UHGV virus genome: UHGV-0017704
Length of the DNA stretch: 38,608 bases
From: a virus
Direction: 5' to 3' (one strand)
In this document: positions 2,867 through 38,608 of the stretch, piece after piece
How the letters are laid out: each line of letters begins with the position of its first letter
How positions within the stretch are numbered: position 1 is the first letter of the stretch
Translations under genes and position numbers: made by a program
Notes under the pieces: generated by a model
Told to the model about the DNA's origin: nothing
Databases searched by the model: none
What the model saw: only the letters and a program-made list of their open reading frames with translations

Positions 2867-2919
2867 GGTACTAGGTACGTACTCACATCATACGTTAAAA
2901 CTAAAGTTTGAGGGCTTAT

Positions 2920-3080
2920 CTATCGCGCGAGAAGTATCCCGCCCCTTATATAGCCCCCTATCCCTTTTAATTCACGAATTTCACCCAACGCCCCCTTTAC
3001 TAAACACAATTTTCATATTGTAAATACCACTTTAAATTAATTATAATAAAGTATCATATGAGCATATGCTCATATTATAT
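2920..3080. other. Candidate packaging (cos/pac) region upstream of the small terminase gene
   Basis: Unusually C-rich tract (CCCGCCCCTTATATAGCCCCCTATCCC) in an AT-rich genome, plus a 20-bp perfect palindrome ATATGAGCATATGCTCATAT at 3056..3075. Confidence 0.3.
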
Positions 3081-3133
3081 TCTACAATTAAATTGTGTAC
3101 AATCGTATGAACATTTATTCATATAACAAAATA

Positions 3134-3162
3134 TTGACATTTTATTTACCCAATGATATAAT
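3134..3162 (+). promoter_or_regulatory. Sigma-A promoter TTGACA-17-TATAAT
   Basis: Exact consensus hexamers with a 17-nt spacer. Confidence 0.6.
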
Positions 3163-3181
3163 AAATTACAAAGGAGTAATA

Positions 3182-3274
3182 ATGATAGGGAAAATGTTTG
3201 GAAAATTAACAGTTATTTCTGAATTATCTGAACGAGCAAATGGAGGTGATAAACGTGGGTGTACGATTAAATGA
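3182..3274 (+). pseudogene. N-terminal remnant of an HNH-like homing endonuclease
   Basis: 30-aa ORF MIGKMFGKLTVISELSERANGG.. resembles the conserved N-terminus (G-x-FG-L-TVI) of this endonuclease family. It runs into the small terminase gene in another frame. Confidence 0.3.
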
Positions 3275-3581
3275 AGAACAATTAAAACGTAAACAATGGA
3301 TTATCGAACGTATGGACGATTATAAAGAAATTGACGAGCCACTCGTTGAGGCGTTGGCGTTCGCAATTGATAGACTTGAATATATGGACGAGAGAATTAA
3401 CACAATCCCCGCCATGTTAGATGACCGCCAATTTATGGCAAGTCGCGATAAGTTTGTAAAACAAGTCGAAAGCGGTTTGAAAATGCTAGATATTACGCCT
3501 CAAGCTCGGAACAAAAAAGAGGCTGAAGCGGTTAAACAATTAGAAAATAAAGACCCTTTGGAGGCGTTACTAGATGTATAA
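3255..3581 (+). CDS. terS: Terminase small subunit (P27-like)
   Basis: About 108 aa, GTG start after GGAGGTG, directly upstream of and overlapping the large terminase gene. The ORF track offers an alternative start at 3240. Confidence 0.5.
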   Translation: MGVRLNEEQLKRKQWIIERMDDYKEIDEPLVEALAFAIDRLEYMDERINTIPAMLDDRQFMASRDKFVKQVESGLKMLDITPQARNKKEAEAVKQLENKDPLEALLDV

Positions 3582-5241
3582 AAAAGCCTATGAATATTGT
3601 AAATGGGCAGTGCAATCTGATAACAATAAAGTTCCTAAGTACGTTAAAAAACAGTGTTCACAATTTATAGATATATGGGAAGATAAGGATACTATTTCAA
3701 TAATAGACCACAACAAAGCCAATAAGATTTATAAATTATTACAGCTAATTAACGTACCTAAGGGGGACGGCGTAGGTAAATCAGTTGTAAATAGCCTCAC
3801 GGGCTTTCAATGGTTATTACTCATCGCCCCGTTTTGTGTGGTACATCGAGACGACAACAGCAAGAGAACATATGAGCAGATACTACTAGAAATCGCCCGT
3901 AAAAATGCGAAGTCTTATGTATCCGCCCTTATATGTTTGGTACTTATGATTTTAGAACCTAAATTCTCACGATTTTTTACAGTAGCACCAACTGGAGCGT
4001 TAGCCCGTGAAACATTTAGACAAATGAAAGAGTTTGTCAATACGTCACCCGCCTTAAGTAAACATTTTAAATTAAGGCGTGATAACATTATATGTACGTT
4101 AACAAGCTCGGAATACGTTCCGCTTAACTACAGTACAAGTACACTAGACGGAAAGCTCCCAAATGCTTGGCTTGGCGATGAAGTCGGGGCGTTACCTTGT
4201 AGCTATCCTCTTGACGCCATGCGTTCGGGTAGTGTACTATTAAAAAATAAACTAGGTATTATCATGTCTACAAAATATCCTACAGTTGATAACCCTATGG
4301 AGGCTGAGGTACAATATAGTAAAAACGTATTAGACGGGATAGTTGAGGATACAACTATCTTTTCATTATTGTATGAGCCCGATAAACCTAAAGGAGATTG
4401 GACTACGGATAATAGTATATTGGAACAAGCTAACCCGTTAGCGATTGAAGTACCTGTACTATGGGATAACTTGATTAAAACCCGTACTAAGGCGATTGAG
4501 TTACCCGAAACTAAATCGAATTTTTTAACTAAACATTGTAATATTATATGTAGTGAAACAGGTAACGAAGCATACGTTGATATTCAAGATGTAAAAGCAT
4601 GTGCTACGTCTAAACATATTGACTGGAACGGGCGTGACGTTTACGTTGGACTTGATTTATCAATCTCGGGCGATAACACAAGTGTTAGTATTGCGTGTCG
4701 CGATGACAATGGTAAATTAATTTGTAAACCTATGTGCTTTATTCCTAAAGATAGGAAAGACATAAAATCTAAAAAAGAACGCTGTAATTATGACCAATAT
4801 ATTGAAAATAATCAATGTATTGCATGCGGTAGTGATGTAATCGACTATGCAACAGTAGAAGATTATATTATTAACCTACCACAAACGTTAGGGGTTAACA
4901 TTATTGCAGTAGGATATGATAGGTTTAACGCTATGTCTACAGTGTGTAAACTGGAGGAAGCGGGTATACCATGTATTGAGGTTAAACAGCACTCAAGTGT
5001 ATTGGCTAGTCCTACAAAACTACTTTATGAGGAAATAACTACACATAATTTCATGTATGAAGAAAATGAATTATTTGAAGTTAATTTCGCCAATTGTAAA
5101 GTACAGTATGATACAAATATGAATAGATATGTTCATAAAAAGAAATCTCAACGTAAAGTAGATATGGTTGTAGCAACTTTGGACGCTGTAACCCTGTTGG
5201 AACAAGCGGAATTGCTAGACAGTAACTGGGTATGCGAATAA
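3574..5241 (+). CDS. terL: Terminase large subunit (Terminase_1-like)
   Basis: 555 aa. Walker A-like IARKNAKS. Length and position before the portal gene. Confidence 0.85.
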   Translation: MYKKAYEYCKWAVQSDNNKVPKYVKKQCSQFIDIWEDKDTISIIDHNKANKIYKLLQLINVPKGDGVGKSVVNSLTGFQWLLLIAPFCVVHRDDNSKRTYEQILLEIARKNAKSYVSALICLVLMILEPKFSRFFTVAPTGALARETFRQMKEFVNTSPALSKHFKLRRDNIICTLTSSEYVPLNYSTSTLDGKLPNAWLGDEVGALPCSYPLDAMRSGSVLLKNKLGIIMSTKYPTVDNPMEAEVQYSKNVLDGIVEDTTIFSLLYEPDKPKGDWTTDNSILEQANPLAIEVPVLWDNLIKTRTKAIELPETKSNFLTKHCNIICSETGNEAYVDIQDVKACATSKHIDWNGRDVYVGLDLSISGDNTSVSIACRDDNGKLICKPMCFIPKDRKDIKSKKERCNYDQYIENNQCIACGSDVIDYATVEDYIINLPQTLGVNIIAVGYDRFNAMSTVCKLEEAGIPCIEVKQHSSVLASPTKLLYEEITTHNFMYEENELFEVNFANCKVQYDTNMNRYVHKKKSQRKVDMVVATLDAVTLLEQAELLDSNWVCE

Positions 5242-5244
5242 TAC

Positions 5245-5273
5245 TTGACATATATATTAGTATTTGATATAAT
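5245..5273 (+). promoter_or_regulatory. Consensus sigma-A promoter TTGACA-17-TATAAT immediately after the large terminase stop
   Basis: Exact hexamers at 5245..5250 and 5268..5273. Confidence 0.55.
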
Positions 5274-5376
5274 ATACTTGAACTAAAAAGATAAAACATT
5301 TATTATCTCCGAGCGGTATGCGTGTTAGTCCCCTAACCCGCAACGCTAAAACAAATTACATTTATATATCTTTTTG

Positions 5377-5410
5377 ACCTGTACAAATTTGTACAGGTTT
5401 TTTATTTTTC
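5377..5410 (+). terminator. Rho-independent terminator
   Basis: Palindrome CCTGTACAAATTTGTACAGG followed by a T-run. Confidence 0.7.
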
Positions 5411-5413
5411 TTG

Positions 5414-5442
5414 TTGACATTGTACTAACAATTTGATATAAT
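5414..5442 (+). promoter_or_regulatory. Late-type promoter TTGACA-TTGTACTAACAAT-TATAAT (copy 1 of 4)
   Basis: Exact -35 and -10 hexamers with a 17-nt spacer containing the inverted repeat ATTGT-ACTA-ACAAT. Confidence 0.6.
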
Positions 5443-5465
5443 GTACTCACAAAGGAGGTGATAAA

Positions 5466-5618
5466 ATGAAAGAAATTAAGAACACACGCTTGCAAGTGCG
5501 TTGTACAGCCGAGGAACTAGAAGAGTTTAAAGAGCAAGCTAATGAGAATGGTTTTACAATATCTGATTATATTAGATACTTGATTGAGAATGATGTGAAA
5601 GGAGGTGAAGAATAACAT
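5466..5618 (+). CDS. Ribbon-helix-helix (CopG-like) small DNA-binding protein, 50 aa
   Basis: RBS AGGAGGTG then ATG. Sequence TRLQVRCTAEELEEFKEQANENGFTISDYIRYLI fits a beta-alpha-alpha RHH fold. Missing from the ORF track because it is shorter than 60 aa. Confidence 0.5.
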
Positions 5619-6829
5619 TGTTTGATTGGTTTAAAAGTGAAAATCGAGCAACAGACGCGGAAATTCTTGCAGATGTAGCCGACGGGTTCGCTCCCCTAAC
5701 TGGAACAGCAAAAACACGAGCTGACGCCTTGAGTATTCCAGCAGTTGCTACCGCAGTTGATTGGATAAGCGGGGCTATTAGTGGTTTACCTATCCGAATG
5801 TATAAGAAAACTGATAGCGGTTATCAAGAAGTATTTGACGATTATCGTATTGATTTAGTTAACCAATACAGCGGTAACTGCATGACGGCTAGTGATTTGT
5901 TCAAGAATATCATTACCGACTATCTACTAGACGGGAACGGGTTCGCTTATGTGGTTAAACGAGGGAATAAGATTGAAAAATTGTCTTATATTCCGCCTAC
6001 AAAGCTAACTTATACAGAGTCAGTAGACTGTATCGATAAAGTCTTGAAAGTATGGGTTGACGCTCGCGAAATTCGAGATTATGATTTGTTGCGTATTTGT
6101 AGACATACAAAGAATGGTTTGACTGGTATTGGTTTTGTATCTGACAATCAACTTTTACTATCTACTATTCTTAACTCTTTGGACTACGAAAACAAAACAA
6201 CGTCAAGCGGTGTGCGTCGTGGTTTCTTAAAATCTAAATTCAAATTAGATAAAGGAAAATTAAAATCGTTGAAAGAGGCTTGGCAGAAGTTACGCAATCG
6301 TGATAGCGATGTATTGGTACTTAATGAGGGTATCGAGTTCGAGAACGCTACAAGCACAGCAACTGAAAGCCAGTTGAGTCAGAATAAGGAAATTAATACC
6401 CGTGCCGTACTCACATACTTTGGTTTACCTAGTAATTTTCTAACAAATGCTAACTCAGATAGTTACAAAACTGCTGTTATGATTGCAGTACTACCTATTG
6501 TGGCTCAGTTAGAAAACGCGTTAAATGAGTACTTGTTGTTGGAAAGTGAAAAGGGTAATTTAAAATTCGTTATTGATACTACTTCTCTTATGCGTACTAA
6601 CATTGTTGAACGTTATAACGCCTATAAAGTAGGCGTTGATAGCGGTGTACTCACAATTGATGAAGTTAGACGTCTTGAGTCTTTACCAGTATTAGATTTG
6701 CCATTTGTTAAAATGTCATTAGGCAACGTATTATATAATACCGAAAATGGTAATATTTTCGTTCCAAATACAGGCGTCACAACAGATATGCAAGGAAATA
6801 CTAATACTCAAGAAAATAATGAAAATTAG
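5618..6829 (+). CDS. Portal protein (HK97 family)
   Basis: TTG start after AGGAGGTG. Hallmark ALSIPAVATAVDWISGAISGLPIRMY. Confidence 0.85.
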   Translation: MFDWFKSENRATDAEILADVADGFAPLTGTAKTRADALSIPAVATAVDWISGAISGLPIRMYKKTDSGYQEVFDDYRIDLVNQYSGNCMTASDLFKNIITDYLLDGNGFAYVVKRGNKIEKLSYIPPTKLTYTESVDCIDKVLKVWVDAREIRDYDLLRICRHTKNGLTGIGFVSDNQLLLSTILNSLDYENKTTSSGVRRGFLKSKFKLDKGKLKSLKEAWQKLRNRDSDVLVLNEGIEFENATSTATESQLSQNKEINTRAVLTYFGLPSNFLTNANSDSYKTAVMIAVLPIVAQLENALNEYLLLESEKGNLKFVIDTTSLMRTNIVERYNAYKVGVDSGVLTIDEVRRLESLPVLDLPFVKMSLGNVLYNTENGNIFVPNTGVTTDMQGNTNTQENNEN

Positions 6830-6832
6830 CCG

Positions 6833-6861
6833 TTGACATTGTACTAACAATACTGTATAAT
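6833..6861 (+). promoter_or_regulatory. Late-type promoter (copy 2 of 4)
   Basis: TTGACATTGTACTAACAAT..TATAAT. Confidence 0.6.
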
Positions 6862-9305: not shown

Positions 9306-9334
9306 TTGCAATTGTACTAACACTATGATATAAT
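9306..9334 (+). promoter_or_regulatory. Late-type promoter (copy 3 of 4, TTGCAA variant)
   Basis: TTGCAATTGTACTAACAC..TATAAT. Confidence 0.5.
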
Positions 9335-12924: not shown

Positions 12925-12936
12925 GGAGATAATAAC

Positions 12937-13434: not shown

Positions 13435-14904
13435 TTGGCTAAAACAATTGACTTATTAATGTCACTTAAAGACGGAGTGAGTCCTAAATTAGGTAAAATT
13501 AATAACAATCTACAAACTACAAGCGGTAAAGCGAAAGCCCTCGGAAAATCGTTCTTGTCAGTCGGTAACATAATGAAAGGTGCGTTTGTAACTGGTGCAA
13601 TAGCGGGTTTTGTAAAGTCAACAATTGGAGCATATGAAACTCAAATCAAGGCTGAGAAATCTGTAACACGTGCTATTATGGCACAAGGGGCAACAGCACA
13701 ACAGGCGTCACAAGATTTAAAAGAGTGGCAATCTTTCGCAAGTAAACAACAAGATATCACTGCTTTCGGTGATGAGGATACTCTTGCAAATATTAGCGGG
13801 TTAATCTCGCAAGGGTTTGGCAAAAAAGACATTAAAGATATTGTTGCTATGTCACAAGATATAGCACGGAACACGGGTGACAATCAAAAAAATGTAATGG
13901 ACGCCATGAGTGCATATATTAAAACAGGTGCAAGGGCTAAAATTCTAGCAAAACAATATAAATTAAACGCGGACTTGTTAGGTAAAGGTAAAACGGAAAG
14001 CGAACGTTTAGCCGAAGTATGGAAAGCGTTTGAACAATCGGCTAACAAAGGAGCTAGCACGGAATACCTTAAAACATTTGAGGGACAATGTGAGTCACTT
14101 AAAGGGCGTTTGGCTGACCTTAATGAACCAGTCGGACATTTATTTTCAACTCTTATGGGCTATGGTAATGACCCGAACGCCACATTCGTTAGTACATTGG
14201 ATAAAGTAGTAGTTGACGCAACAGCAGATATAGACGCCATGGCGAAAAAAGCCGATGAACTTGGTGGTGGTATTACTGGCGTTGGACTTGCTTGTTTAGA
14301 AGCTCACCCTATCATTACTACGTTAATAGGTGCGGGAGGTGTTGGTAAAGGTATTACTGTTATGGCTGATTTTGCCACGGCTTGCAGTACTGTTAAAAAT
14401 GCTATTAGTGGTGTTACAATTGCGGTAGGTGCTTTAGAAATCGGGTTAGGTGCTTTACTTGGTACTATTGGTGCCGTTGCACTTGCATTAGGTGGTTTAA
14501 TTGCATTAGGGCAAAACTGGAATAGTATGGCTCCAGAAGTGCGAGAACAGTTAAACGAAACTCAACGGGAAGCCAACGGGGTATATCAAGCGAACGAAGC
14601 CATGTATGGTGGTGTAGCAATTCCCGACATGAGCCATTCAAAATATGGCACACATCCAAATGCAACTGGTACAAATTATTTTGCAGGCGGTTTGGCTGAG
14701 ATTGGCGAACATGGCGGGGAAATCTTAAATTTACCAAACGGAACTCAGATTATTCCTAACGATATTTCAAAACGAATGAGTGGAGGCTATACATTCAATT
14801 GTCCAATTACAGTGCAAGGTAACGTCATCGGCAACGAGGACTTCGTAAACTATATTGGACAGGTTATTTCTGATAGGGTTAGCTTGGCTATCTCAAATTG
14901 TTAG
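13435..14904 (+). CDS. Tail tape measure protein
   Basis: 489 aa. Helical N-terminus and Gly/Ala-rich hydrophobic core. TTG start after GGGGTG. Confidence 0.8.
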   Translation: MAKTIDLLMSLKDGVSPKLGKINNNLQTTSGKAKALGKSFLSVGNIMKGAFVTGAIAGFVKSTIGAYETQIKAEKSVTRAIMAQGATAQQASQDLKEWQSFASKQQDITAFGDEDTLANISGLISQGFGKKDIKDIVAMSQDIARNTGDNQKNVMDAMSAYIKTGARAKILAKQYKLNADLLGKGKTESERLAEVWKAFEQSANKGASTEYLKTFEGQCESLKGRLADLNEPVGHLFSTLMGYGNDPNATFVSTLDKVVVDATADIDAMAKKADELGGGITGVGLACLEAHPIITTLIGAGGVGKGITVMADFATACSTVKNAISGVTIAVGALEIGLGALLGTIGAVALALGGLIALGQNWNSMAPEVREQLNETQREANGVYQANEAMYGGVAIPDMSHSKYGTHPNATGTNYFAGGLAEIGEHGGEILNLPNGTQIIPNDISKRMSGGYTFNCPITVQGNVIGNEDFVNYIGQVISDRVSLAISNC

Positions 14905-14924
14905 TACAAAGCATGTAATTTTAT

Positions 14925-17656: not shown

Positions 17657-17685
17657 TTGACATTGTACTAACAATAATGTATAAT
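17657..17685 (+). promoter_or_regulatory. Late-type promoter (copy 4 of 4)
   Basis: TTGACATTGTACTAACAAT..TATAAT. Confidence 0.6.
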
Positions 17686-20353: not shown

Positions 20354-20725
20354 ATGTTAGGTACTAAAATGTTAAAAAGTGAATTTAATCAAACCGAATA
20401 CGCTAAAATGGCGAACTGGTGCAATAGTCACCAATACAAAACTATCAAGGATATGGGCGATTATTACGAGGTAGTAGACTGTACACCAACGCAAGCGGAA
20501 ATGAACACGGGTAAAAAAGCGGAATTGTTAGTACAATTAAAAGATGTGAACACACAAATTCAAGAATTGGACGTTGCCTCCATGTGTGATAACGGGGACG
20601 ATACAACGGACGTTGTGGTTAATGGCGAACTTGTTACCATGACAGCTGAGGAACTAGACGATTATCATACAAATGTTATGGCGTTACGCACTAACATTTT
20701 ACAGCAAATTAAGGAGTTGAAATAA
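20354..20725 (+). CDS. Hypothetical (fiber assembly?) protein
   Basis: Lies between the two fiber paralogs. Confidence 0.35.
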   Translation: MLGTKMLKSEFNQTEYAKMANWCNSHQYKTIKDMGDYYEVVDCTPTQAEMNTGKKAELLVQLKDVNTQIQELDVASMCDNGDDTTDVVVNGELVTMTAEELDDYHTNVMALRTNILQQIKELK

Positions 20726-21897: not shown

Positions 21898-23134
21898 ATA
21901 CCAACAAGATATTATAGACAAGTTAAAACCTTATAATAAGTGTGCATTATATTTGGAAGCGGGATGTGGAAAAACGCATACGTCATCATGTAAAGCCGTA
22001 TCGTATAACGTACCTATTATTGTAGTAGCACCTAAAGCGGTTATACCTCAATGGGTGGAACATTTTAAAGACAATCACCCCGAATGGTGGTTGTATGATT
22101 TATCCAATAAACAGCAATTAGCCGACTTTGTAAAATCTAAAGAGCCTAAAAGGTGCGGTATTATTACATACGGGTTAACTTGGAGGCGTCCCGAACTACT
22201 TAAAATGAGTGGATACACTCTTATTCTTGACGAGGCTCATAATATTTGTAGTCCTACATCCAAACAGACAAAGGGCGTTATGAAGTTGAAGTATGATAAT
22301 CTTATTCTACTCACTGGTACGCCAAATGGAGGACGTTACGAAAAACTTTATACGCAAATGAAAATGCTTGGATATAAACCTAACAAAAAGAAGTTTGAAG
22401 ATAGATATTGTAATATGTTCACTATGGAAACAGGCGGGGTAAAATTCAAAGTGCTTTCAAAGTCAAACCCTTATAAAAATATCGATGAGCTTAATACGAT
22501 ATTGAGGGATGACTTGCATTGTGTATTCTTGAAAACGAGTGACGTACACGAGTTACCGCCACAACGTTTTTTGCCTGTTCATATTGCTGTGTCTAAAGAG
22601 TATCAGAAATTTCTTAAAGATGAATATGTAGACCTTGGCGATAGGGAATATATAGCGGGTTCGCCTACTGATAAATTATTGTACTCACGTTATCTATGTG
22701 GGGTTGACAATAAAAACAAGATAGAGGTACTCACAACATTGTTAGAGGGAATAGAAGATAGGGTGATTATATTCTACAACTTCAAAATAGAAAACGATGT
22801 ACTCACAAAATTATGTAAGAAATTAAAAAAACCCGTATTCACGTGTGACGGGGCTGTAAAGCAAATCGATAAATTTAAAAGTATCGATAATTCAGTATTG
22901 TTAGTACAATATCAAGCGGGAGCAACTGGACTCAATCTACAATTCTGTAATAAGGTTATTTATTTCAGTCCTACACTATCATCTAACTTATACGAGCAGT
23001 CTAAGGCAAGGACGTGGCGTATCGGACAAGAGAATAAGTGTACTTATTGGAAATTAAAATGCGGGGTTGAGTACGATATTTACAACGCATTGAACAGCAA
23101 AAATGATTATACGTTGAAATTATTTGAGGGGTAA
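21881..23134 (+). CDS. SNF2-family (DEAH) helicase
   Basis: Motif I EAGCGKTH, motif II LILDEAHN, motif III LLTGTP. C-terminal GATGLNLQ and QSKARTWRIGQ. Confidence 0.8.
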   Translation: MMKLYKYQQDIIDKLKPYNKCALYLEAGCGKTHTSSCKAVSYNVPIIVVAPKAVIPQWVEHFKDNHPEWWLYDLSNKQQLADFVKSKEPKRCGIITYGLTWRRPELLKMSGYTLILDEAHNICSPTSKQTKGVMKLKYDNLILLTGTPNGGRYEKLYTQMKMLGYKPNKKKFEDRYCNMFTMETGGVKFKVLSKSNPYKNIDELNTILRDDLHCVFLKTSDVHELPPQRFLPVHIAVSKEYQKFLKDEYVDLGDREYIAGSPTDKLLYSRYLCGVDNKNKIEVLTTLLEGIEDRVIIFYNFKIENDVLTKLCKKLKKPVFTCDGAVKQIDKFKSIDNSVLLVQYQAGATGLNLQFCNKVIYFSPTLSSNLYEQSKARTWRIGQENKCTYWKLKCGVEYDIYNALNSKNDYTLKLFEG

Positions 23135-23805: not shown

Positions 23806-24135
23806 ATGAAATTCAGACGTTGGCTTGAAAGTAAAGGAATATATAAAATAGGTACGCCGAAGCAAAAAATAAAAGTACCTCAAATAGGGATATTCATGAA
23901 AAATGCGGGAACACTGTTCAGCACCAACGGGACTCCAGATTATTTACTTGATATTAGAGGGCGGGCTATTTGGTTGGAATTTAAAGCCTCTAAAGGACGC
24001 CCGTCTATCCCTCAAATAAAAATAGTTGACAATATAAACTCATGGGGCGGGGTGGCTAGAATTATATATCCTAAAGATTTTGAGGAAACGTGTAAACTAA
24101 TAGAGGAGGTAATAAATGAGACGGGAGGAGTATGA
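23806..24135 (+). CDS. VRR-NUC domain nuclease
   Basis: GTPDYLLDIRGRAIWLEFKASKGRPSIPQ matches the PD-(D/E)xK VRR-NUC core. Typical partner of SNF2 helicases. Confidence 0.6.
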   Translation: MKFRRWLESKGIYKIGTPKQKIKVPQIGIFMKNAGTLFSTNGTPDYLLDIRGRAIWLEFKASKGRPSIPQIKIVDNINSWGGVARIIYPKDFEETCKLIEEVINETGGV

Positions 24136-24820
24136 GAAGTATTATCGTAGACAGAATTATGTAAAATGCGGTGCTGAATTATATGCTAAATTCTATAGAA
24201 CGTATGATAATATTAAAGCTAGATGTTACAATAAGAATAACCACAAATATAAAAGCTATGGTGCAAAAGGTGTGGTAATGTGTGACGAGTGGTTACAATC
24301 ACGTGAAGCGTTTATAAAGTGGTGTGATGAACATTGTAAAGATATTACATTAAGTATAGAACGTATAAATGTTAATGGGAACTATGAGCCGAGTAATTGC
24401 ACTTGGATAACCATGAAACAGCAAGCGAAAAACAGACGAGACTCAATAAAAGTAAATTATTATGGTACTGAATATTGTTTACGCGATTTATGTTCTAAAT
24501 TAGGATATAATCATAATGAATACAAGCGAATACATGCGAGAATTGCATATGAAAACTGGGATGTTTATAAGGCAATTGAAACGCCTATAAATCATAACGA
24601 TAATAAATCAAAATATTTAAAACCCTCATACACCTATAAAGGTTATACAAATAGTTTAAGACAAATATGTAAACATTTCAACTTAAATTATGGGGCTATT
24701 AAATATCGTGTAATTAGTGGAATGTCAGTAAAGGACGCTTGTGATAAAGGTACAGAAAAGCCATACACATATGTTAAGCGTGTATCTAATTTAGGAGGGA
24801 AACATTTTGACAAACATTGA
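24116..24820 (+). CDS. HNH-like homing endonuclease paralog C (divergent, long C-terminal domain)
   Basis: [42 protein letters not shown]. Confidence 0.6.
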   Translation: MRREEYEKYYRRQNYVKCGAELYAKFYRTYDNIKARCYNKNNHKYKSYGAKGVVMCDEWLQSREAFIKWCDEHCKDITLSIERINVNGNYEPSNCTWITMKQQAKNRRDSIKVNYYGTEYCLRDLCSKLGYNHNEYKRIHARIAYENWDVYKAIETPINHNDNKSKYLKPSYTYKGYTNSLRQICKHFNLNYGAIKYRVISGMSVKDACDKGTEKPYTYVKRVSNLGGKHFDKH

Positions 24821-27035: not shown

Positions 27036-27045
27036 ATCTAACACT

Positions 27046-27106
27046 TTACAAATTAGGATATTTGGTGTATTCTAATTATAGAAGATAAAGTTACTTATGG
27101 AGGTAA
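27046..27106 (+). repeat. 61-bp regulatory cassette (putative promoter plus RBS), copy 1, identical to 36793..36853
   Basis: TTACAAATTAGGATATTTGGTGTATTCTAATTATAGAAGATAAAGTTACTTATGGAGGTAA, 61/61 identical. Confidence 0.8.
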
Positions 27107-32687: not shown

Positions 32688-33048
32688 AATTATTTGCCCT
32701 AGATGTGGCAAAATTACAGAAGTTGGACATGATTGCCCGAATAAATATAAGGATACACGCAAAAAAGAACAGTTACAGGGGAGCCGTTGGCAACGTATCC
32801 GCGACGAGGTTCGTAGGCGTGACGGATGTTGTGTGTTGTGTTGGTTGAATGGTGAGTACAGCAAGGGAAACCACGTTCACCATATCATTGAGCGTCAAAC
32901 AGACAGTTCAGACGATAACGTGTATAATGTTAATAAATGTGTATTCTTATGTGAGGACTGTCATCACAAAGTACACCAAACACAATCAGAATGGACTAAA
33001 TATATTGATGTGTTCACAAAATACGTAGAAGCAAGGAAACATGAATAA
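32677..33048 (+). CDS. HNH endonuclease (classical Zn-finger HNH)
   Basis: CPRCG..GCCVLCW..HVHHI..N..LCEDCHHKVH. Confidence 0.7.
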   Translation: MSRKIICPRCGKITEVGHDCPNKYKDTRKKEQLQGSRWQRIRDEVRRRDGCCVLCWLNGEYSKGNHVHHIIERQTDSSDDNVYNVNKCVFLCEDCHHKVHQTQSEWTKYIDVFTKYVEARKHE

Positions 33049-33289
33049 TTTTAGACAAAGCTATGCATGGAAACGAAAACGCTCGGAGATAAAAGAATTA
33101 TATAATGGCAAGTGTGCCGTGTGTGGCAGTACTGAGAAGTGCGAAGCTCATCATATAATCTCATTATCGGTATTGCCACAATTACGACTGGACAATGATA
33201 ACTTGATACTGCTTTGTAGCCACTGTCACAAATTGGTGCACAACGGCTTAATATCATCGACAAACTTAATGCATAAAGTAAAGAGGTAA
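33041..33289 (+). CDS. HNH endonuclease (second, adjacent)
   Basis: CAVCGS..AHHIISL..DNLILLCSHCHKLVH. Confidence 0.65.
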   Translation: MNNFRQSYAWKRKRSEIKELYNGKCAVCGSTEKCEAHHIISLSVLPQLRLDNDNLILLCSHCHKLVHNGLISSTNLMHKVKR

Positions 33290-33320
33290 GGTCATTATGA
33301 CCTTGCCTCATTTTTATTAT
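33278..33320 (+). terminator. Terminator
   Basis: AAGGTCATTATGACCTT followed by GCCTCATTTTTATT. Confidence 0.5.
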
Positions 33321-33333
33321 GCGTTTTAAGTAT

Positions 33334-33362
33334 TAGACATATTATATAGGGTGTGTTATTAT
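33334..33362 (+). promoter_or_regulatory. Early-type promoter AAGTATTAGACA-17-TATTATAAT
   Basis: Belongs to the shared promoter family. Confidence 0.5.
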
Positions 33363-33400
33363 AATAGTGAAGAGGGAACAAGATAATATGGAGGTACAAA

Positions 33401-33604: not shown

Positions 33605-33611
33605 TAAGTAT

Positions 33612-33640
33612 TAGACAAGTTTTACAAGATGATGTATGCA
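33612..33640 (+). promoter_or_regulatory. Early-type promoter
   Basis: AAGTATTAGACAAGTTTTACAAGATGATGTAT, a 32-mer identical to the one at 33807. Confidence 0.45.
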
Positions 33641-33654
33641 AGGAGGCTACTAAT

Positions 33655-33783
33655 ATGAAAAGTTTAACATTGATTTTAGCATTGACATTACCTATCATAT
33701 GGGGACTTGATTTGACAATCTGTAACGTCTTTATTGCTGTTGCACTTTGGGGTGTTGAGGTGGCTAAATGGTTGAATGATTAA
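33655..33783 (+). CDS. Small hydrophobic protein (42 aa)
   Basis: RBS AAGGAGG then ATG. Two hydrophobic segments. Confidence 0.35.
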   Translation: MKSLTLILALTLPIIWGLDLTICNVFIAVALWGVEVAKWLND

Positions 33784-33812
33784 AAGTTATAGTAATTATG
33801 TAATTTAAGTAT

Positions 33813-33841
33813 TAGACAAGTTTTACAAGATGATGTATTAT
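33813..33841 (+). promoter_or_regulatory. Early-type promoter
   Basis: TAGACA-17-TATTATAAT. Confidence 0.5.
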
Positions 33842-33885
33842 AATTATAGACGCTGAGTTAAGTTATTACATGGAGGTAATTAAAA

Positions 33886-34989: not shown

Positions 34990-35122
34990 AACGATTAGAA
35001 CCAAATCAAGTAGTAATGATTGAGGCTTTATATTATGACTATGAAATATATCGATGAATTATGTGAGTACAATTTCAAACAAGGTATGACTTTAACGAAT
35101 ACCAATAATGATAATTAAGTAT

Positions 35123-35151
35123 TAGACAAATTACAGTATATCCTGTATTAT
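35123..35151 (+). promoter_or_regulatory. Early-type promoter
   Basis: AAGTATTAGACA-17-TATTATAATAAG. Confidence 0.5.
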
Positions 35152-35204
35152 AATAAGTGAGGAGAGGTAATGAACCTCAGTTATTATAAAGGAGATACGA
35201 AAAT

Positions 35205-36762: not shown

Positions 36763-36795
36763 AGAGCATACTAAGTATGCTCTTTTTGTATTTTA
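36763..36795 (+). terminator. Rho-independent terminator
   Basis: AGAGCATACTAAGTATGCTCT followed by TTTTGTATTTT. Confidence 0.65.
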
Positions 36796-36853
36796 CAAAT
36801 TAGGATATTTGGTGTATTCTAATTATAGAAGATAAAGTTACTTATGGAGGTAA
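36793..36853 (+). repeat. 61-bp regulatory cassette, copy 2 (identical to 27046..27106)
   Basis: Exact identity. Confidence 0.8.
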
Positions 36854-38459: not shown

Positions 38460-38608
38460 TATTAAAATTGAATTGAAGAAGTTAAGAGATACAGGTGAGT
38501 ACTCACCTAACCAACTAAAAGAAATTAAAGAACAATGGGAATATGAAAATGAGGTAGAAAAAGAAAAAGAAAGAGAACGTAAACAGCAAGAAAGAGAACG
38601 TAAACAGC
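38452..38608 (+). CDS. 5' part of the SF3 helicase gene (continues at 1..1388 across the circular junction)
   Basis: ATG at 38452 overlaps the upstream stop. The frame is open to the window end, with (ERERKQQ)n repeats in phase with the window start. Confidence 0.6.
   Translation, partial: MINIKIELKKLRDTGEYSPNQLKEIKEQWEYENEVEKEKERERKQQERERKQ

Follow-up and report, generated by a model that had tools for sequence, protein, structure and literature searches.

Small RNAs of Firmicutes such as RsaE/RoxS, Staphylococcus aureus RNAIII and the Rsa RNAs have their own promoter and intrinsic terminator, a structured body, and an unpaired motif of the CUCC/UCCC type that complements ribosome sites with GGAG(G). 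The same traits are found in a predicted RNA, here called Y RNA, whose gene lies between the large terminase (TerL) and portal genes of UHGV-0017704, a virus genome of 38,608 nucleotides that was analysed at its full length and is referred to as the window. The window copy has a second C-rich motif, a UCCC loop at 5329-5332. Unlike these Firmicute RNAs, to which it has no sequence or covariance-model similarity, Y RNA is phage-encoded within a block of structural genes, and two of its three subgroups (B and C) do not carry the motif. The CopG and RNA II system of pMV158/pLS1 resembles the cassette formed by Y RNA and the ribbon-helix-helix (RHH) gene behind it, in that an RHH protein of ~45-57 amino acids follows a promoter with a palindromic site and is coupled to the next gene, and one or two tiny terminator-ended RNAs are complementary to the ribosome site of the operon. 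Here, the spacer of the RHH promoter carries a motif with equivalent palindromes in relatives, a putative RHH site. In contrast to pMV158/pLS1, the gene for Y RNA lies upstream on the same strand, and Y RNA would pair partially, over 8-14 bp in trans, rather than as a full countertranscript; the controlled gene would be portal and not a replication initiator, and binding of the RHH protein to the motif is putative. Phage RNAs such as P22 sar, P1/P7 c4, P4 CI and lambda OOP are short, strongly expressed and repress phage genes by pairing, as proposed for Y RNA, and P22 immI combines RHH repressors (Arc, Mnt) with a small RNA within the late region. Those RNAs, however, are antisense or leader-processed and serve immunity in temperate phages. 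The Y cassette is also like the morons described by Hendrix, in that it brings a promoter and terminator to a junction at which the flanking genes directly abut in most relatives, but its cargo is a non-coding RNA and a regulator translationally coupled to portal, not a lysogenic-conversion protein.

Searches with Rfam 15, which includes PreQ1, C4 antisense RNA, phage pRNA and RsaE, gave no gathering-level match in the window. At E <= 10, matches over 5150-5500, 12 relatives and L162:4690-4860 were at chance level, reaching at most 24.5 bits against thresholds of 42-125. The C4 model did not match Y RNA, and no tRNA or tmRNA genes were found. A description of such an element was not found in the literature. 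By sequence and model, Y RNA is not a member of any of the compared systems and represents a new family of a known kind, the phage-encoded regulatory small RNA. This uncatalogued family, with the window copy as its founding example, occurs only in a clade of phages of ~37-39 kb, which are probably virulent and probably infect Bacillota.

The region 5245-5409 is very likely a genuine structured small-RNA gene (Table 1). An earlier sequence-only reading of this DNA had placed a perfect TTGACA-17-TATAAT promoter just past the TerL stop, and this is exact, as the TAA at 5239-5241 is followed by TTGACA at 5245. The promoter is of the sigma-70 type and has an extended -10 element (TG at 5265-5266, the final letters of the spacer being TGA), lacks the TGTACTAACA motif of neighbouring late promoters, and has a counterpart in all relatives. 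The strong terminator that had been noted downstream lies at 5377-5409, with a 9-bp stem and a U-tract, and the second late promoter ahead of the RHH and portal genes at 5414-5442. The terminator stem contains G+C and begins right after the closing helix of the RNA, P1. A discrete transcript is predicted, as had been proposed, although its length is nearer 125 nt than 130 nt. When a 131-nt transcript was folded, its energy was -32 kcal/mol compared with -15.3 +/- 3.0 for dinucleotide shuffles (z = -5.5, 0/200). There is no credible open reading frame (ORF) between promoter and terminator, and no small ORF is common to the relatives. The only ATG ORF, at 5318 with 19 codons, does lack a Shine-Dalgarno sequence as first read; it lies inside a segment that no relative has and is not conserved, and a coding function was rejected. 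Perfect promoters of this type occur five times in the window, whereas 0.03 are expected and none of 100 shuffles reached five.

The unit is conserved well beyond the window. TerL homologues at 61-92% identity are plentiful in ENA, Logan and other metagenome assemblies, and contigs with the unit were drawn from these, IMG/VR and metagenome collections. In all such relatives with readable DNA downstream of TerL, the TerL stop is followed 1-5 nt on by a promoter, an RNA of ~95-125 nt, a terminator, a second promoter with a palindromic spacer, and the RHH and portal genes. This arrangement was seen at L001-L004, L162-L169, L306-L320 and L334-L338, amounting to ~20 distinct versions. A descriptor scan of ~350 loci and the window found the unit at the TerL/RHH-portal junction only, once per genome; loose sequence patterns for the RNA gave mostly chance matches in IMG/VR. 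The RHH gene, of which 12 homologues were aligned, is always linked to Y RNA.

Three subgroups, A, B and C, can be distinguished, with group A comprising the window, L306, L165, L001, L307, L166, L334 and L336. Folded singly, 16 of 17 homologues gave P1, P2 and the terminator. P1 has the consensus AAAAGAYN with NRUCUUUU and starts at or a few nucleotides from the predicted 5' end; the distance from promoter to P1 puts the 5' end inside the helix in most members. P2 is a short apical hairpin immediately 5' of an AAAAC or AAAC tail that is present in nearly all homologues. Two A/U-rich arms of ~18-22 nt each separate P1 from P2, and the terminator starts 0-2 nt past P1. Pairs 7 and 8 of P1 covary, with the variants GAUA/UAUC, GACA/UGUC, GACU/AGUC and GAGU/ACUC. 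The outer stem of P2 reads AGCG/CGCU, AGCGU/ACGCU, AGUGU/ACACU, AGCGG/CCGUU (with a G-U pair) or AACGC/GCGUU in group A, and UCCG/CGGA, CUAG/CUAG or CCCA/UGGG in groups B and C; UCCU/AGGA is a further variant. The terminator stems covary among relatives as well. G-U pairs in P2 of L165 and P1 of L312 point to an RNA on the + strand. A local hairpin, GAUAA/UUAUC, was considered as a conserved switch rivalling P1 and rejected, being lost in L334, L336, L167 and L318.

Automated alignment recovered part of this structure. In group A, MAFFT followed by RNAalifold independently returned P2 and the terminator with covarying pairs, but not P1, because its 3' strand was misaligned. Neither P1 nor P2 was registered in groups B and C because of length shifts of 1-2 nt; pairs were therefore counted on helix-strand constructs. 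On these, 95% of helix cells are paired, compared with 77% in column shuffles (0/500) and 41-66% with slid partners, and 7 of 12 pairs show double-sided changes, counts that are biased toward pairing since the strands were picked by eye. Fold prediction and covariance across related phages, which the sequence-only reading had put forward as a check, thus gave a shared fold with compensatory changes in both helices.

Sequence conservation is concentrated in the unpaired 5' part. The stretch UUUAUUAUCUCCGA in the 5' arm is invariant in the eight distinct group A sequences, and the loop motif CAUUUAUUAUCUCCGA is an unpaired, invariant 14-17 nt. In group A, the first 30 nt of the RNA match the window at 81-97% identity, whereas identity is 53-66% at third-codon positions across the last 450 nt of TerL. 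By this comparison, the unpaired motif is under purifying selection. Groups B and C keep P1, P2, the tail and the terminator without the group A motif. The proposal that this orphan promoter-terminator unit is a candidate small RNA is thus supported by conservation in ~20 contigs, compensatory changes in two helices and a selected unpaired motif. The G/C-rich core that had drawn attention fared differently: it is 36 nt long and unique in the window at 5311-5346, but it is the least conserved part, being mostly a 28-nt apical insertion in the P2 loop (5316-5343) found in the window only. The closest relative, L306, with a TerL 92% identical, has a 10-nt P2 loop at that position. The core has no copy in IMG/VR, and the insertion is missing from all relatives. 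It is rather the A/U-rich flanks, the closing helix and the UUAUCUCCG motif that look functional.

Table 1. Features of the Y RNA locus and related elements; positions are in the window unless a contig is named.
Feature	Position	Strand	Remarks
TerL ORF	3574-5241	+	stop TAA at 5239-5241; Pfam TerL domains in homologues
Promoter of Y RNA	5245-5273	+	TTGACA 5245-5250, 17-nt spacer, TATAAT 5268-5273
Y RNA (predicted transcript)	5280-5405	+	~125 nt; start inferred 7-8 nt past -10; 3' end placed in U-tract
P1 closing helix, 5' strand	5284-5293	+	UAAAAAGAUA; pairs with 5367-5376, sequestering the RNA 5' end
Unpaired motif in internal loop	5297-5313	+	CAUUUAUUAUCUCCGAG; conserved across the window's subgroup
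Apical element P2	5312-5347	+	outer stem AGCG 5312-5315 / CGCU 5344-5347
G/C-rich insertion in P2, window-specific	5316-5343	+	inner hairpin GUUAG-UCCC-CUAAC at 5324-5337
A-rich tail and 3' arm of internal loop	5348-5366	+	AAAAC at 5348-5352
P1 closing helix, 3' strand	5367-5376	+	UAUCUUUUUG
Intrinsic terminator	5377-5409	+	9-bp stem 5377-5385/5390-5398 (ACCUGUACA/UGUACAGGU), loop AAUU, U-tract 5399-5409
Second perfect promoter	5414-5442	+	TTGACA-17-TATAAT; TGTACTAACA in spacer at 5421-5430
RHH ribosome site	5454-5465	+	GGAGGUGAUAAA
RHH gene	5466-5615	+	49 aa/codons; Pfam NikA-like 4.9e-9, RHH_1, RHH_5; PHROG transcriptional repressor
Portal gene	5618-6829	+	
TGTACT[AC]ACA, example sites	5421-5430, 5442-5451, 6840-6849, 9313-9322, 17664-17673	+	
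TGTACT[AC]ACA, example sites	14899-14908, 20526-20535, 22899-22908	-	
X unit	L312:2277-2360, L313:3280-3345, L316:3190-3250, L318:1582-1670, L343:2230-2300		~45-nt RNA, G+C-rich terminator; window without X

What such an RNA might do is suggested by the invariant motif, which is the complement of GGAGAUAAUAAAUG, that is, of the region from a Shine-Dalgarno sequence across the spacer to the start codon. In the proposed mechanism, host sigma-A polymerase would transcribe Y RNA from the consensus promoter and its own intrinsic terminator would end the transcript. P1 would lock the 5' end, and P1 and P2 together would frame a large A/U-rich internal loop displaying CAUUUAUUAUCUCCGA. Y RNA could then pair in trans with ribosome-binding regions of phage mRNAs and lower their translation. 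The first candidate target is the RHH-portal operon immediately downstream, and further candidates include gene 12937, encoding a tail-assembly chaperone, and others. Between 5299-5310 and the RHH ribosome site, 12 contiguous pairs can form, two of them G-U. The stretch 5300-5310 can form 11 Watson-Crick pairs with the site of gene 12937 (12925-12935), and 5297-5310 can form 14 pairs with the SD-to-AUG region of the HNH gene 24116 (24105-24118), which at -18.7 kcal/mol ranks first of 70 sites. In L339, of which 15 kb were examined, the orthologous RHH, chaperone (12937-like) and 12538-like sites rank second to fourth of 23. One further candidate was rejected, a specific target within the HNH gene 33041-33289, where 33080-33092 is a 13-nt perfect complement (~0.05 expected); it was taken as chance because the gene is missing from the contig of L001 and L327 has not retained the site. 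With this match inside gene 33041-33289 and the 14-bp one over the ribosome site of gene 24116-24820, the motif has its two best complements at HNH endonuclease genes, probably by chance.

A second RNA in sister phages bears on the same target. In L312-L320, L330/331 and L343/344, a unit called X lies between TerL and Y and consists of a promoter, ~12 unpaired nucleotides GUACCUCCGUCG and a terminator. Promoter-terminator units number three in tandem where both X and Y are present. The X seed can pair with the RHH ribosome site over 8-11 nt and ranks it first of 22-23 sites, by 3 kcal/mol. The phages with X are exactly those whose RHH site reads GGAGGUAC/GGGGGUAC/GGAGGUGC, whereas the others have GGAGGUGA. 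The group A motif AUCUCCGAGCG resembles the X seed. We count X as independent support for the putative targeting of the RHH-portal operon by Y RNA.

Several observations weigh against pairing with ribosome sites, and against the evidence for the structure itself. The motif complements a generic Firmicute-type ribosome site, so that many sites match, and the RHH site is only eighth of the 70 ribosome sites in the window. Genome-wide, the best complementarity score is 33, which does not exceed that of shuffled RNA (mean 30, maximum 38). RNAs of groups B and C match the RHH ribosome site at chance level (z from -2.2 to +1.9, with no trend); since they lack the anti-Shine-Dalgarno motif, the pairing mechanism leaves the conserved core of P1, P2 and the AAAAC tail unexplained. 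The covariation alignment, moreover, was made by eye, and the automated procedure missed P1. An antisense mechanism is thus possible but held with less than even confidence. For the explanation as a whole, an independent ~125-nt small-RNA gene whose product would act in trans as a translational repressor of RHH-portal and a few other genes, we consider the case to be about evenly balanced.

The same observations can be read in other ways. Since the core common to all three groups carries no common antisense motif, Y RNA might be a decoy or otherwise bind a host or phage protein through its conserved scaffold (P1, the apical hairpin with AAAAC behind it, and the A/U-rich loop), with the anti-Shine-Dalgarno motif incidental. 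The partner could be an RNA chaperone, a nuclease or a Cas protein, in the last case with Y RNA as an RNA anti-CRISPR or mimic of a solitary repeat. A promoter that by sequence is very strong and constitutive and the moron-like insertion behaviour of the unit are both consistent with this, and the hairpin followed by (ACU)AAAAC may resemble the hairpin-plus-handle layout of several CRISPR repeats. However, the apical hairpin drifts with compensatory changes, and the length of its loop ranges from 4 to 28 nt in closely related phages, unlike a mimic of a fixed repeat. The G/C core has no copy in IMG/VR, no Rfam family matches, and the sole invariant stretch in group A is precisely the unpaired motif that this explanation would leave incidental. 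We find it unlikely. It is less likely still that the unit has no RNA function, with the terminator merely ending the TerS-TerL operon, the promoter being one of many, and the structure arising from A/T richness or from protein-bound DNA palindromes. The genome does contain many consensus promoters and a genome-wide palindromic motif, apical hairpins resembling that motif occur in L306 (CGTACTAACA) and L307 (TGTTAGTATAACA), and P1 is A-U rich and weak. But P1 strands 60-80 nt apart still covary, the G-U pairs are strand-specific, the unpaired 5' part is far more conserved than adjacent synonymous sites, the promoter is spaced such that the RNA would begin inside P1 in most members, and the unit is kept across TerL divergence to 51% identity (L004). 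These features make an absence of function very improbable.

The position of the unit raises the alternative of a cis-acting leader, in which the RNA would act on the very polymerase that transcribes it or sense a ligand, with readthrough from 5245 into the RHH-portal-head operon as in HK022 put, lambda PR'-tR' with Q, or a riboswitch. Y RNA is oriented like the structural genes directly downstream of it, the order of promoter, structured RNA and terminator resembles such units, and the combination of a short hairpin with an A-rich tail behind it (AAAAC..CUAAC in group B) is superficially like the preQ1-I aptamer. Readthrough is unneeded, however, as a full consensus promoter lies 5 nt past the U-tract and a separate promoter is present downstream of the Y terminator in every relative. 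Phages with both X and Y have three such units in tandem, the terminator stem has no apparent alternative (antiterminator) partner, and, in contrast to lambda PR'-tR', the unit lies after TerS and TerL, which are themselves late genes. Nor is the likeness to preQ1-I borne out, since no PreQ1 or riboswitch model matched even at E <= 10 on sequences of 171-351 nt and Y RNA is not in a 5' untranslated region. A preQ1-I-like pseudoknot, suspected from GUUA/UAAC in group B, was rejected, loop-tail complementarity in 17 homologues being the same as with shuffled tails (combined p = 0.9). A preQ1-I leader position was likewise rejected, as the terminator is separate from P1 with a fresh promoter behind it in all members. 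Control in cis is therefore quite improbable in our view.

In 59 of 79 more distant IMG/VR relatives, with TerL ~50% identical, the portal ORF starts at most 35 nt from the TerL stop, which marks the RNA and RHH genes as an inserted cassette. It is missing from L170, whose TerL is 65% identical. In L004 (IMGVR_UViG_3300045988_093169), TerL is 51% identical to that of the window, compared with 71% for L003, yet its Y RNA and RHH gene hardly differ from those in L003. Recombination thus seems to have had a boundary where TerL meets the RNA, and the cassette travels with the portal side. All RHH homologues end in KGGE or KGGD, and these final codons, AAAGGAGGTGA, form the Shine-Dalgarno sequence of the portal gene (5600-5620 in the window). 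The RHH stop and the portal start are 0-5 nt apart or overlap, which implies translational coupling. Palindromes recur around the cassette in other groups as well. The loop of the Y terminator in group C carries an operator-like palindrome, CTTGTTATAACAAA (L312:2465-2500, L313:3445-3480), which in L318 (1830-1870) is found instead in an extra hairpin past the terminator, and in group B a second palindrome, TTGTTACAACAAAA, lies ~25 nt upstream of the -35 element of the RHH promoter.

The window is the complete, circularly assembled genome of an uncultivated phage, with a G+C content of ~35% and all genes on the + strand. Tandem 21-nt repeats, AAGAAAGAGAACGTAAACAGC, are present at both ends (1-75 and 38555-38608) in an ORF spanning the junction, and the contig is therefore a circular assembly. 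Its genes include a D5-like primase, DNA polymerase, helicase, dUTPase, several HNH endonucleases, a holin, a GH25 lysin and an HK97-type head module; the scanned proteins included neither an integrase nor a repressor module. No DNA match to the window was found among GenBank phages. Among sequenced genomes, the nearest TerL reaches ~50% identity, in diverse Bacillota and other metagenome-assembled genomes, and the style of promoters and ribosome sites suggests a Bacillota host. The five perfect promoters lie in the packaging, head and tail region (3134-3162, 5245-5273, 5414-5442, 6833-6861 and 17657-17685), and an identical 19 nt, TTGACATTGTACTAACAAT, is common to three of them; a sixth promoter (TTGCAA...) with the same spacer motif is located at 9306-9334. 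In the other half of the genome, a different promoter-like repeat, AAGTATTAGACA-N17-TATTATAAT, occurs in at least four copies (33290-33400, 33605-33885, 34990-35169). Upstream of the small terminase gene, a 373-nt non-coding stretch (2867-3239) contains C-rich runs (CCCGCCCC, GCCCCC and CGCCCCC) and a 20-bp perfect palindrome at 3056-3075, a candidate cos/pac region. A direct repeat of ~52 nt, TTTACAAATTAGGATATTTGGTGTATTCTAATTATAGAAGATAAAGTTACTT, at ~27045-27096 and ~36795-36846, is directly upstream of two genes that both start with ATGGAGGTAA.

The motif in the RHH promoter is dispersed throughout the genome. TGTACT[AC]ACA occurs in 25 copies on both strands, compared with 0.31 expected, within four late promoters (5414, 6833, 9306 and 17657) and also inside genes; in the RHH promoter region, a second copy, TGTACTCACA, lies at 5442-5451. 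The RHH protein, or another DNA-binding protein of the phage, probably binds this 10-mer. In related phages, the most over-represented 10-mer is analogous but differs by group, being TGTACTAACA in L339 (group A), TGTTACAACA in group B (L340-L342) and TGTTGCAACA in group C (L343/L344), while L345, a more distant phage, has no comparable over-represented 10-mer. Because the dispersed motif changes with RHH type, genome-wide RHH binding is suggested, and control of RHH dosage could matter. One can imagine a circuit like that of plasmid copy control, in which constitutive Y (and X) RNAs would set the translation of RHH and the coupled portal gene and the RHH protein would bind the 10-bp motif across the genome, a scheme we regard as doubtful. 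If it were true, Y RNA would control a genome-wide DNA-binding factor governing late transcription or DNA handling.

Comparative support is rare for small RNAs of virulent phages of Gram-positive and gut bacteria, and in the case of Y RNA the helices covary, an unpaired motif is under selection and the genomic partner is defined, namely the RHH gene and the dispersed motif that goes with it. Its parts are simple: a consensus promoter, a scaffold whose 5' end would be locked, and a terminator. If confirmed, it would constitute a new RNA family and a tractable case in which an RNA tunes low-copy virion components or a phage regulator.

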